A stretch of DNA of 64,000 nt, taken from positions 1 to 64,000 of IMG/VR virus record IMGVR_UViG_2930430511_000001. One strand, given 5' to 3'. The notes below the pieces were generated by a model that saw only the letters and a list, made by a program, of their open reading frames with translations, was not told where the DNA came from and did no database searches. Below, in pieces: positions 11,681 to 15,992 of this stretch. How positions within the stretch are numbered: the stretch's first letter is position 1; every line of letters begins with the position of its first letter. Source of the stretch: a virus (Duplodnaviria; Caudoviricetes). The position numbers and the translations under genes were made by a program.

Positions 11681-12270
11681 CCGACGATCTGTGGCAGCGC
11701 ATCGCCGACGCGGTCGGCAGCACGCAGACAACCGACGTTGTGATGACCATCGTCCAGCCCGAACTGATCAGTCTCCGCTCTGCGCTTCGCAACTCCGAGC
11801 GCATCCGTGAGAACGCCGACTTCCACCTCGGACAAGAGATGGCGCGGCGGCAACTGGCGGAGAAAGAGAACGCCCGCCTCCGCGCTGAGCTTGACCATTG
11901 GCGCCCAGACGGCAACGACGGATACGGGCACCCGGTCCATTGGACCGTCTACAACGACATGCACCACCGAGCCCTGAAGGCAGAAGGCGCCATCGAGCGC
12001 GTACGGGCTCTGCATGAGCGCCGGGAAGCCGACGACGGCTCCACGTACTGCGACGTGTGCTCCAACCACGGCGACATCGCCTGGCCCTGTGCCACCATCC
12101 GCGCCCTGGACGGGAAGGCGGCCAGGCCTTCCCGGTGCGCCGAGTGCGGGCACCCCAAGGCGCAGCACCAGGCCCCGGAGGAGCCCGTATCCGGCGGCCT
12201 GTGCACCGCGTGCGACGAGGAAGGCAGCGACGACGCCCAGCACGACTACGAGCCCGCCGAGGAGGCGTGA
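11677..12270 (+). CDS. Hypothetical phage protein (C..C..WPCATIRAL motif)
   Basis: GTGA coupling; motif common in actinophage early genes. Confidence 0.7.
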   Translation: MTDDLWQRIADAVGSTQTTDVVMTIVQPELISLRSALRNSERIRENADFHLGQEMARRQLAEKENARLRAELDHWRPDGNDGYGHPVHWTVYNDMHHRALKAEGAIERVRALHERREADDGSTYCDVCSNHGDIAWPCATIRALDGKAARPSRCAECGHPKAQHQAPEEPVSGGLCTACDEEGSDDAQHDYEPAEEA

Positions 12271-13106
12271 TGCGCCGCCTCGCCGCGGTCCCCGAGACGC
12301 CTGAGCCGCCGAAGCGGACGCTCGAAGAGATGCTCACCGCGATCTACAACGACTGCCGTCCCGACCACGAGGCCCGGGAGCTGCTCCTCGCCGTCACCTA
12401 CGCCGTCAAGCTCGGCCCCCAGGAAGGCGACGCGTCCCCGCTGCGGGAGGCGCGCCGCGTCCTCGGCAGGGACAAGAGCACCGGCAAGGCCCGCTACGAC
12501 CGCCTGGTGGCCGCCGACGCGCCCCGCTACGAGCCGCCGCGTGAGGCCGGCGACTGGTACCCGTCGGGCGCGCCGCACTGCAAGGCTCCCCGGCTCCGCC
12601 CGTTCAAGCCCCGGCCGTACACTCCGCGCGCTAAGTCTGACCCGGTGCTGCCCGAGCCGACACCCATCCGGCAGCCCAGCATCCCGCCGGACATTGCCGC
12701 CTTCGTGGCCGCCTATACGGTCTACGCCTCCGCCAACTCCGCCCCTCCACGGGACTGGCGCACCGAGGACGGCGTGTGCGGAGCTGACTCCCACCACCGC
12801 GTGCTGGAGAAGGACCCGCGCACCGGCTGGATCACCGCCCACTGGTTCTGCAAGCGGCACAAGGAGCACGCCGACCGGGTTGCCGAGCAGGTCCGGGAGC
12901 AGAACGAGCAGGCCCCGGAGCCGATCCCCAACAAGGGTGGGCTGCTGCCGTGCTACTTCAAGGCGGACTGGGCGACGGTCTACGCCCACTACCGCAAGGG
13001 CTGGACGGCTCCGTCGTACGGACTGTGCGCGGATGACTGGCCGTCTGCTGCGTCGGCGGTGCCGCGGGGGCGGCTGCGGGTCATGGTCGGTTCGACGGGC
13101 GCGTGA
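12270..13106 (+). CDS. Hypothetical protein
   Basis: GGAGG RBS, TGATG coupling. Confidence 0.7.
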   Translation: MRRLAAVPETPEPPKRTLEEMLTAIYNDCRPDHEARELLLAVTYAVKLGPQEGDASPLREARRVLGRDKSTGKARYDRLVAADAPRYEPPREAGDWYPSGAPHCKAPRLRPFKPRPYTPRAKSDPVLPEPTPIRQPSIPPDIAAFVAAYTVYASANSAPPRDWRTEDGVCGADSHHRVLEKDPRTGWITAHWFCKRHKEHADRVAEQVREQNEQAPEPIPNKGGLLPCYFKADWATVYAHYRKGWTAPSYGLCADDWPSAASAVPRGRLRVMVGSTGA

Positions 13107-13484
13107 ACGCGTATTGACGGCCGTGTCAACAACGTGTGGGTGGCGTAGGCGCGGGGTGAGGGTGTGGTGACCGGGGGTGAATCGACCTGGTCAGAAGGTC
13201 GCCCCGCCGAATGCCGGGCTGATACACGTAGCCATGGCATATGCCAAACGCAGTGCGGCGGGCCTCCCCCGGGCTGCGATTACCGGTAGAGACCCGCCAC
13301 GCACACACGACCCGAGCCAGCCCCACACTGAACCCGCGTCAGGTGACCATCCGCGGTGGCCTGATCACAGAAGCCATCATGCGTGAAGCTTCAACCGAAT
13401 ACCTCCGCCAACTTTTCACCGAAAAAACTCCACAACAAACACCACTAGCACCACACGCCACCGACGTGATAACGGGGAGACAGA

Positions 13485-14312
13485 TTGAACAAGGACGCGC
13501 TCAAAGGCCTACTCGAGAGCCGACGCGCCCGCATCGACCCCACCAGCGTCGGCCTCGAACGCACCCAACGCCAAGGCCGCCGCGCCGCCGGCCTCGGCCT
13601 CTCCCAGGAGCAAGTCGACAAAATCGCCGGCTACGGCACCCGTACCTACAGCCGCCTCGTCAACGGCAAAATCCACGACCCCAGCTACCCACTCCTCCGC
13701 GCCTACGCCAACGCCCTCCGTCTCACCGAGCAGGAGTGGGTAGCAATGTGCCGCTACGCCCGCGGCGACGACCGGGACCGTGCCCTCAACCCCCGCTCCG
13801 GCAAAAAGGTCCCCGGCATGTGGGCCGACGCCGTCGAAGGCTTCCGGCACATGGCCTACATCACCGACCAGTCCTACAACCTCCTCGCCCACAACGAGCC
13901 GTTCTCGGACCTGTTCGCCAACCGGCAGCCCCCGCCCAACATGATGGAGTGGATGCTGCTGTCCGAGGCGGCACGCACCACCCTCACCGACTGGCCAACC
14001 GTCTGGGCCCCCTACGTCCTGCCGCAACTGCGCGGAGCCCGCGCCATCCTCCCCGACGACTGCATCCTCGCCGCCATCGAACAGGCCGTCATAGCCGACC
14101 CCGAATGCGGCCCGATGTACGAGGAGCGCACCACCGCCCAAGTCCACCCCGACGGCCAGGAACGCCCCGTTCTCCACCCCCTCCTGGGCCCGGGGTGGGC
14201 GAACATCTGCGCCGCGGAACCCCTCTCGAGCCCCAACGCCCGCCTGATGATCGTGATGTTCTATCCGGGTGTCGGCCCCTCCCACGTCCGCCGGCCACAC
14301 CTCCACGCCTGA
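13485..14312 (+). CDS. XRE-family HTH plus MmyB-type (MLTR) PAS-like ligand-binding regulator
   Basis: LLESRRARIDPTSVGL..GRRAAGLGLSQEQV...YSRL; AYITDQSYNLLAHNEPF..LF, PNMMEWMLL, W..WAP. Confidence 0.9.
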   Translation: MNKDALKGLLESRRARIDPTSVGLERTQRQGRRAAGLGLSQEQVDKIAGYGTRTYSRLVNGKIHDPSYPLLRAYANALRLTEQEWVAMCRYARGDDRDRALNPRSGKKVPGMWADAVEGFRHMAYITDQSYNLLAHNEPFSDLFANRQPPPNMMEWMLLSEAARTTLTDWPTVWAPYVLPQLRGARAILPDDCILAAIEQAVIADPECGPMYEERTTAQVHPDGQERPVLHPLLGPGWANICAAEPLSSPNARLMIVMFYPGVGPSHVRRPHLHA

Positions 14313-14396
14313 CCACCTGGCCCCTGGCACGTCATCGCGGGAAAGCGGCGGAGAGTCGGACCGTAAAGTTGAGGGCCTCACCAGGGGGAGGCCCTC

Positions 14397-15443
14397 ATGC
14401 CTGCACACGTCACCGGCCCCACCGTCGAACACCCAGACAACTGGGTCACGACGGATGAAATCTGCGACAACATCACCCAGCACCACCCCAACCACCCCAA
14501 ACTCGGGACCGTGCTGCGCGTCGTCCGCAACACCGGCGTCCAGACCCGCGCCTTCCACCACCCCCTGGACTCCGACCAGATATCCGGCAGCCTCAGCATC
14601 GCCGACCGCAACCAGCAGGCATGGGTCGACGCCTCCAGCCTCGCCGAAGAAGCCGCGGAGAAGGCCCTCGAGGAGGCCGGCCTCCAGCCTGGCGATATCA
14701 CCGCCATCGTCACCAGCAACACGACCAGCTGGGCCGCGCCGGGCTTGGACGTCCACCTCGTCGAGCAGCTCGGCCTCCGCCCCGACGTACGCCGCGTGGC
14801 GCTGGCCACCGTCGGCTGTATCGGCGGTGCCCAAGCCCTCACCCGCGCCGCGGACCTCGTCACCGCACACGGCTCCCGCGTTCTCGTCGTCGTGTCCGAG
14901 GCGCTCTCCACCATCTACCACCACGCGGACACGTCCCTGGAGTCGATGATCTACAAGGCCTTGTTCGGGGACGCCGCCACTGCCTGCATCGTCACCGCCG
15001 AGCCCCTCCAGCCGGGTGTGCGCATCGACGACACCTGGGAGTACCTGCTGCCCAACTCCCGCGACCGCTTCTGGGGAAGCCTGCTGGAAACCCACATCCG
15101 CTTCGACTCCACCAAGGCCGCCACCAGGGCACCCGCGGACGCCATGCCCGCACTCGTCGACTGGCTCAAGCAGCGCGACGCCGTCACCCCGGACTGGGCA
15201 GTCGTCCACGCCGGCAGTCCCGCGATCCTCACCGCGGCGCAGCAAGGCCTCAGCCTCACCGGCGCCCAGCTCCAGCACTCCCACGCCAGCCTCGCCCAGG
15301 TCGGAAACCTCGGCGGCAGCTCCGTCCTGGATGTCCTGCGCCGCACCCACGACACCCCGCCCGCCGACGGCGCGACAGGCCTGATGCTCGCCTACGGGCC
15401 CGGGTTCACCACCACCGCACTCACGGGCACCTGGGTCAGCTGA
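14397..15443 (+). CDS. Type III polyketide synthase (chalcone synthase superfamily)
   Basis: Cys-His-Asn triad (TVGCIGG, VVHAGS, GNLGG), ALFGDAA, AYGPGF. Confidence 0.93.
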   Translation: MPAHVTGPTVEHPDNWVTTDEICDNITQHHPNHPKLGTVLRVVRNTGVQTRAFHHPLDSDQISGSLSIADRNQQAWVDASSLAEEAAEKALEEAGLQPGDITAIVTSNTTSWAAPGLDVHLVEQLGLRPDVRRVALATVGCIGGAQALTRAADLVTAHGSRVLVVVSEALSTIYHHADTSLESMIYKALFGDAATACIVTAEPLQPGVRIDDTWEYLLPNSRDRFWGSLLETHIRFDSTKAATRAPADAMPALVDWLKQRDAVTPDWAVVHAGSPAILTAAQQGLSLTGAQLQHSHASLAQVGNLGGSSVLDVLRRTHDTPPADGATGLMLAYGPGFTTTALTGTWVS

Positions 15444-15473
15444 CTGTCCTCTCCGTTCAAGGCGGGGAACCCG

Positions 15474-15502
15474 TAGACATGTCTAGACTGTACATGTATC
15501 AT
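15474..15502 (+). promoter_or_regulatory. Promoter TAGACA-N17-TATCAT with palindromes TAGACATGTCTA and TACATGTA
   Basis: Leaderless ATG six nt downstream; likely autoregulation by the following HTH. Confidence 0.7.
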
Positions 15503-15508
15503 CTAGTC

Positions 15509-15733
15509 ATGCAGGAAACGCAACGCGCGGAACTCACCCGTCGCGCCGAAGAAGTAGCCGCCCGCCGTGCAGGCGCCACCGCCGAACTCAAGACCATCGC
15601 CGTCGAACTCTGGCGCGATGGCCTCCACAACGTCCGGCAAATCGCCACCACCACGACCCTCTCCCGCGCCACCGTGTACGCAGCACTCCGCGCCGAGGGC
15701 ATCGAACCCACCCAACGCACCACCGAGCAGTGA
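15509..15733 (+). CDS. Small HTH DNA-binding protein
   Basis: NVRQIATTTTLSRATVYAAL. Confidence 0.75.
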   Translation: MQETQRAELTRRAEEVAARRAGATAELKTIAVELWRDGLHNVRQIATTTTLSRATVYAALRAEGIEPTQRTTEQ

Positions 15734-15743
15734 GGACACCGAC

Positions 15744-15992
15744 ATGGCACTCGTGGACGACATCGAGTTCTACGGCAACGCCGTCGACACCGGCAAGATG
15801 ACCCGTCAGGACGCCGTCAAGGCCCTGGCGGAGGCCAGCAACGGCGGCCTCACCGAACACGGCGCCGCCGAGTCCATCCGCAACTGGAAGACACGCCGAC
15901 GCGATTACCAGGCTGCGGCCCAAGCCGCGCGAAGGACACTGACCAACTGCCTGAACACGCTGTACGAGCTTCCGAGCCATCCCTCGGAGTGA
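15744..15992 (+). CDS. Hypothetical protein
   Basis: GAGGA RBS within a GAGCAGTGAGGAC junction. Confidence 0.7.
   Translation: MALVDDIEFYGNAVDTGKMTRQDAVKALAEASNGGLTEHGAAESIRNWKTRRRDYQAAAQAARRTLTNCLNTLYELPSHPSE

Follow-up and report, generated by a model that had tools for sequence, protein, structure and literature searches.

The closest described relative of the locus presented here is the vio cluster of Streptomyces somaliensis SCSIO ZH66, which consists of two genes, vioA and vioB, on a circular plasmid of about 85 kb (PMC4924298). VioA is a polyketide synthase (PKS) of type III with about 350 amino acids (aa) and VioB an XRE/MmyB-like regulator of about 272 aa. Knockout of vioA is reported to abolish violapyrone B, knockout of vioB to increase it about 8-fold and knockouts of the open reading frames (ORFs) flanking the cluster to have no effect (PMC4924298). 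A second report gives 21 further genomes with vioAB loci, most of them plasmid-borne, and groups VioA with Cpz6, DpyA and Gcs, which are pyrone synthases using fatty-acid-derived starters (PMC5898002). In the accessible parts of both papers, a violapyrone product and a negative regulator are given for S. somaliensis only. Here, we analysed a stretch of 64,000 nucleotides (nt), positions 1 to 64,000 of the IMG/VR virus record IMGVR_UViG_2930430511_000001 (Caudoviricetes), referred to as the window; it represents bases 1-64000 of a single contig of 89,706 bp. Between positions 13,485 and 15,443, it encodes a regulator of the VioB type followed by a PKS of the VioA type. We consider it likely that this pair represents accessory cargo of a pZL12-type Streptomyces phage-plasmid, namely a biosynthetic cassette made up of two genes of the vioB/vioA type.

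The accessible parts of the two vio papers describe the carrier of the cluster only as a plasmid (PMC4924298, PMC5898002). VioA and VioB are 95% identical to pCQ3.110c and pCQ4.19c, respectively (PMC4924298, Table 1), and both closest relatives, the plasmids pCQ3 (NC_013449) and pCQ4 (NC_019307), turned out to be members of the family defined by the large terminase subunit (TerL) of the window's element. The carrier of the vio cluster hence belongs to the pZL12 plasmid-phage family, of which these parts of the vio papers make no mention. Type III PKS genes on elements of this kind are already recorded in the literature: the PKS of pSLE1 was noted to stand without natural-product neighbours (PMC4487206), and such synthases were found only in plasmid prophages (PMC10023795). 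Our literature searches found no paper joining MmyB with a type III PKS, and among publications on phage-plasmids, Streptomyces and polyketide synthases nothing on the function of a vioAB-type cassette. What the window contributes is another diverged copy of a two-gene pyrone cluster that has been published before, on a phage-plasmid of a known kind.

The gene pair and its carrier element

The first gene (13485..14312, plus strand) encodes a vioB-type regulator of 275 aa with an N-terminal XRE helix-turn-helix (HTH) and an MmyB-like (PAS-like) domain. Its ORF begins with a TTG codon 5 nt downstream of GGGGAG, and in-frame stop codons closely upstream of 13485 exclude a longer frame. Both parts exceeded the respective Pfam cutoffs (HTH_3, 33.3 bits against 23; MLTR_LBD, PF17765, 41.3 bits against 26.3). 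A sequence search of the PDB with the regulator gave no match at E values up to 0.01. An AlphaFold model based on a 20-sequence alignment (mean pLDDT 86.4) was matched by Foldseek along its entire length to 3PXP as top hit (E = 6.9e-10 over 286 columns), followed by generic PAS domains. 3PXP is Caur_2278, a PAS-plus-DNA-binding protein of Chloroflexus, which we take to contain a fatty acid. The regulator shares with 3PXP and other MmyB-like proteins the combination of an XRE HTH and a PAS-like domain, but is only 17% identical to 3PXP, with a global TM-score of 0.37. Family and fold matches together predict a PAS-like ligand-binding domain, as had been proposed in a preliminary description of this DNA, which was made from the sequence without database searches.

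The second gene (14397..15443, plus strand) encodes a vioA-type type III PKS of 348 aa. It was recognised by both halves of the chalcone/stilbene synthase signature in Pfam (Chal_sti_synt_N, PF00195, 97.7 bits; Chal_sti_synt_C, PF02797, 33 bits; cutoff 27 each), and its presumed catalytic residues Cys141, His271 and Asn304 are invariant in an alignment of 18 sequences and align with the corresponding motifs in 3v7i, 1u0m and 4jao. In a sequence search of the PDB, 3v7i was found as best match (E = 3.4e-50), followed by 1u0m (E = 1.3e-45). The former is the germicidin synthase Gcs of S. coelicolor (PMC13730376), the latter the synthase THNS/RppA. Both are thiolase-fold type III PKSs with the same Cys-His-Asn triad, yet distant from the window's protein (E values of 1e-50 to 1e-45), and the alignment to Gcs is good over residues 63-347 only. 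To our knowledge, no MmyB-like regulator accompanies Gcs. The window's protein is, as judged from these matches, a type III PKS with intact catalytic residues and is predicted to form a product; that an intact synthase directly follows an XRE-HTH/MmyB-type regulator was already recognised in the preliminary description. A search against PHROGs left the PKS without a family and assigned the HTH protein to a generic regulator family only.

The carrier encodes, according to PHROGs, a TerL (phrog_38, E = 4e-101) and a major head protein (phrog_29), along with a DnaB-like helicase, an FtsK/SpoIIIE protein, an integrase and a single-strand annealing protein. When the region was searched against a phage collection, the only match was Streptomyces phage ZL12 (pZL12, GQ919031, 90.4 kb, circular), in the record of which pZL12.99 is labelled a transcriptional regulator and pZL12.100 a type III PKS. 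The window thus agrees with pZL12 in element type and gene order, while nucleotide identity across the pair amounts to only about 67%. At the DNA level, the region matched 66 plasmids of PLSDB, the best of which, a 92,975-bp plasmid of S. platensis (86.7%), has the same gene order. On the basis of its gene content, the element is assigned to the pZL12-type Streptomyces phage-plasmids. The pair sits within a plus-strand block that starts with DnaB. Pfam gave no match for the ORF at 12057-13106 and six further flanking ORFs; the remaining ones yielded only DUF7213, NERD and a weak, sub-threshold HTH_7 match. Tailoring, export and resistance genes are thus missing among the flanking ORFs tested with Pfam, in agreement with the preliminary description.

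Compared with the pair of pCQ4, whose regulator can stand in for VioB and whose PKS nearly so for VioA, the window's regulator is 52% identical to pCQ4.19c over the full length and the PKS 51% identical end to end; the pCQ4 regulator carries the MmyB-like domain as well. The window's pair is a diverged homologue of vioB/vioA and, as it falls into a different clade from the pCQ4 proteins, not an ortholog of the studied pair. Homology to VioA, Cpz6 and Gcs suggests that the PKS would extend an acyl or beta-ketoacyl starter derived from fatty acids by malonyl or methylmalonyl units and close the chain to a lactone, giving 4-hydroxy-6-alkyl-alpha-pyrones of the class that includes violapyrones, germicidins and presulficidins. 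If the MmyB-like regulator behaves like VioB, it would act on a predicted PKS promoter within the 84 nt between the two genes and probably on the promoter of its own gene as well; its overall action is probably negative and probably modulated by a hydrophobic ligand held in the PAS-like domain.

Several points weigh against so close a parallel to vio. No equivalog of NCBIfam fits the PKS, the top match being DpgA with 90 bits against a cutoff of 425. In our trees, the window's pair falls outside the VioA clade, and the copies of pCQ4 and pZL12 stand in a starred clade different from that of the window; given this separation and an identity of only about 51%, product and regulatory sign may differ from those of vio. 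The clade of the window has no characterised member, so that its product could be something other than a violapyrone. Moreover, the candidate operator and promoter elements described below are inferred from conservation only.

Distribution of the cassette

We defined the phage-plasmid family by a TerL identity of at least 57% (range 57-85%) in PLSDB and used the best 60 of 89 matches for the PKS and the best 60 of 87 for TerL. Among the matches listed, to which all counts for the family refer, 34 plasmids belong to the family; 33 of them measure 85-94 kb and the remaining one 152 kb. The PKS occurs in 26 of these plasmids, whereas a PKS profile search that recovered both positive controls found none in the other eight. 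In all 26 plasmids, PKS and TerL lie on opposite strands, and in 25 of them, as well as in the window's element, they are found in the same relative arrangement at a distance of 21.9-31.2 kb; the exception is a Kitasatospora plasmid (2.8 kb). Despite this constant position, the cassette proteins of the family are only 47-89% identical, and the similarities of TerL and PKS are uncoupled (TerL 85% with PKS 66% in one case, TerL 61% with PKS 88% in another), which indicates mosaic exchange. Pairwise dN/dS values of the phage-plasmid copies range from 0.06 to 0.71 and are below 1 in all eight pairs compared, against 0.03-0.24 for three chromosomal pairs; codon bias probably depresses dS in these figures. 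The cassette is thus retained under purifying selection and is a near-core accessory of the pZL12 family. That three in four family members have kept it at a single place in the backbone goes beyond what is typical of a moron.

Beyond the plasmids, we scanned species-representative genomes with profiles and examined the best 80 of 151 confirmed loci. At 76 of these 80, the gene directly upstream of the PKS is a same-strand regulator, and 44-368 nt separate the two (84 nt in the window). Other genes of the window's element occur within 10 kb at 13 loci and at none of the remaining 67; L042 and L070 (plasmid-sized contigs in genomes without a TerL of the family) and L063 (TerL on another contig) were counted with the latter. 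At about 35 of the loci, the cassette occupies one and the same syntenic chromosomal site, without phage genes nearby, which bears out the statement of the preliminary description that similar pairs occur on chromosomes. The order at this site is GFO/IDH/MocA oxidoreductase, MmyB-like regulator, PKS and GNAT (e.g. L018:7581-11896; L075), and beyond the GNAT gene follow genes for an isochorismatase, a MarR regulator, an acyl-CoA dehydrogenase and a TetR regulator. The GNAT gene is absent from the phage-plasmid, and the flanks of the cassette differ between the phage-plasmid and the chromosomal contexts. At three chromosomal loci (L014, L026 and L029), the PKS is closely followed by a second MmyB-like regulator gene in opposite orientation.

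In the PKS tree, the phage-plasmid copies do not cluster as one but split into at least two groups; the tree requires five changes between the labels phage-plasmid and other, and none of 500 label shuffles gave a number as low. The regulator tree mirrors that of the PKS (Mantel r = 0.74; no value as high in 999 permutations), which means that the two genes travel together, but does not demonstrate a co-evolution of ligand and receptor. When the PKS tree was rooted with two distant plasmid homologues, support on the root side was 29 and long branches met there, and thus we claim no direction of transfer. The distribution as a whole fits a self-contained cassette moving between chromosomes, plasmids and phage-plasmids.

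Four loci hold PKS homologues without an upstream regulator, namely L020 (Actinomadura barringtoniae), L043 (Lentzea), L060 and L065. The Actinomadura PKS nests within the phage-plasmid clade of the window with a support of 99-100, a placement that hints at a transfer out of Streptomyces. More distant PKS homologues (about 41% identity) are found on linear plasmids of S. anulatus (L088, NZ_CP108641.1, 1-9513; also H64), that of L088 within 5 kb of the start of the record; their neighbours include genes for a ScbR-family autoregulator-binding regulator, a small ATP-binding protein and an MmyB-like HTH protein. A further observation concerns TerL, which was matched in two pieces in the PLSDB matches H83, H84, H89 and H90 and in H111 only over residues 98-515. 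Since genes for HNH or LAGLIDADG endonucleases are annotated beneath these split or partial matches, this suggests that the TerL gene of several family plasmids is interrupted by a homing-endonuclease or intein-type insertion.

Possible benefits to the element

Why should a temperate element carry a pyrone synthase and its regulator? Near-core in its family and with an old syntenic home on chromosomes, the cassette provides a clean case for asking how cargo benefits such an element. Three answers other than biosynthetic cargo as such were weighed. Germicidins inhibit the germination of Streptomyces spores. A germicidin-like product could accordingly allow carrier mycelium or spores to restrain their own or their neighbours' germination, to the benefit of host and element. 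Gcs is the closest relative of the PKS with a solved structure by sequence, and VioA, Cpz6, DpyA and Gcs were placed in one clade of pyrone synthases (PMC5898002). However, Gcs is only a distant homologue that aligns well over part of the protein, and the activities of violapyrones given in the accessible parts of the vio papers are antibacterial (anti-MRSA) and anti-H1N1 (PMC4924298, PMC5898002). We therefore regard a role in germination or development as unlikely, although it survives better than the two readings that follow.

The second answer is a communication circuit along the lines put forward in the preliminary description: the pyrone would be a diffusible signal of carrier cells and the MmyB-like protein its receptor, steering the decision between plasmid state and lytic growth, transfer or superinfection, in the manner of a polyketide analogue of arbitrium. 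More generally, a pyrone cue read by the regulator could bias plasmid maintenance, lytic growth or spread of the element, or alter host development to the element's advantage. Such a cue would explain why three quarters of the family hold the cassette at a constant place in the backbone in spite of strongly diverged proteins, and the ligand-binding PAS-like domain predicted for the regulator would suit a receptor. The idea of pyrones as signals is already in print, where violapyrones are considered as possible signals by analogy with photopyrones, whose skeleton they share, and where a low-output VioA variant is reported to have turned on silent clusters in heterologous hosts (PMC12113368).

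Against the communication circuit stands, first of all, the syntenic chromosomal site in about 35 species, at which the same cassette is found away from any phage genes; in addition, eight of the 34 family plasmids do without it. No recognisable repressor, integrase or lysis gene was found by Pfam among the ORFs adjoining the pair, the integrase being located about 30 kb away. The hypothetical operator dyad TTTTC-N3-GAAAA occurs only once in the whole 89.7-kb element, so that no wider regulon is visible. In the accessible part of PMC4924298, the phenotypes of the vioA and vioB knockouts concern violapyrone production. Taken together, neither the neighbouring genes nor the operator copies nor the distribution connect the pair with the lysis-lysogeny decision, with transfer or with density sensing. 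With arbitrium (AimR-AimP-AimX), the window shares only the proposed logic of a phage-encoded signal producer and an intracellular receptor or regulator; it has no peptide signal, TPR receptor or adjacent lysogeny regulator, and its cassette also resides in phage-free chromosomes. The pair is not an arbitrium member, and we consider both the circuit and the more general pyrone cue improbable. If a pyrone sensed by the regulator did affect the life cycle of the element, the locus would matter far more, as it would then be the first case of phage communication by a small molecule that is not a peptide.

Finally, that the pair is a decaying or neutral hitch-hiker, recently captured from a chromosome and functionless on the element, is very hard to believe: most homologous pairs examined lie outside a phage-plasmid context and the label phage-plasmid or other switches at least four to five times on the trees, but neither gene is disrupted, the catalytic triad does not vary, dN/dS stays below 1 in all eight phage-plasmid pairs compared and deeply diverged copies keep their position. 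The preliminary description had held that pairs found mainly on chromosomes would point to recent passive capture. The former part agrees with the 67 of 80 loci without phage-plasmid genes within 10 kb; the latter is contradicted by the frequency, position, divergence and dN/dS values of the family copies. Accessory biosynthetic cargo of the vioB/vioA type hence remains our preferred reading of the pair.

Upstream and intergenic DNA

Two palindromes in the 378-bp spacer upstream of the regulator had been singled out in the preliminary description, the perfect 12-bp palindrome TGGCATATGCCA (13235..13246) and TTGAC-N6-GTCAA (13114-13129), which has arms of 5 bp only. Both are present at these positions, but their number is no higher than expected by chance. 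The element contains 41 perfect 12-bp palindromes compared to 47 +/- 8 in first-order Markov simulations, and about 0.17 are expected per spacer of this length. Allowing up to two mismatches, TGGCATATGCCA has three matches in the window against 1.2 expected and thus no significant extra copies; it is kept in two of three close relatives aligned (in L002 and L007, not in L008). As palindromes of this length are no commoner than in the simulations and the 12-mer lacks significant extra copies, we attach no statistical weight to the two palindromes.

A conserved leader and its dyads in the same spacer appear more persuasive, as do the intergenic features described below. A repeat search also detected the inverted repeat GGCGGGCC...GACCCGCC (13257..13298, plus strand) with arms of 16 nt that are 81% complementary; all four relatives in the alignment conserve these arms, which lie about 190 nt 5' of the regulator start. 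A conserved, relatively AT-rich leader (13379..13484, plus strand), which includes the dyad TTTTC-N3-GAAAA (13413-13425), is a candidate promoter/operator. These roughly 110 nt before the regulator hardly vary between the window, L002 and L007 and are in part retained in L008. A pattern TTT-N4-12-AAA about 75 nt 5' of the regulator start was found at 63 of 79 loci, but in only 7 of 1580 random windows of 90 nt; since the 79 loci are related, this count reflects conservation and not independent recurrence. An Rfam scan of 12900-15800 at E values up to 1 gave no match, and the conserved leader is thus not a known riboswitch or RNA family.

The 84-nt intergenic region between regulator and PKS (14313..14396, plus strand) contains the -10-like sequence CCGTAAAGT and a hairpin, as indicated by motif counts and repeat search. 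Within the last 90 nt before the PKS, the -10-like motif NRTAnnnTK occurs at 58 of 79 loci compared to 28 of 1580 random windows. The hairpin (14370-14397) has 13-nt arms with 92% complementarity, spans the ribosome-binding site and the start codon of the PKS and is kept in L002, the relative from S. platensis, with changes in both arms. Control of translation or of mRNA stability by this hairpin is possible.

A promoter/terminator scan detected no sigma-70-like site 5' of the regulator or of the PKS. Its sole match, TAGACA-17-TATCAT, is located 3' of the PKS, directly after the stop codon (15474-15502), and holds the perfect palindrome TAGACATGTCTA. This site overlaps the start of an ORF at 15479-15733, which encodes 84 aa with a weak HTH_7 match; site and ORF may form a separate regulatory module.

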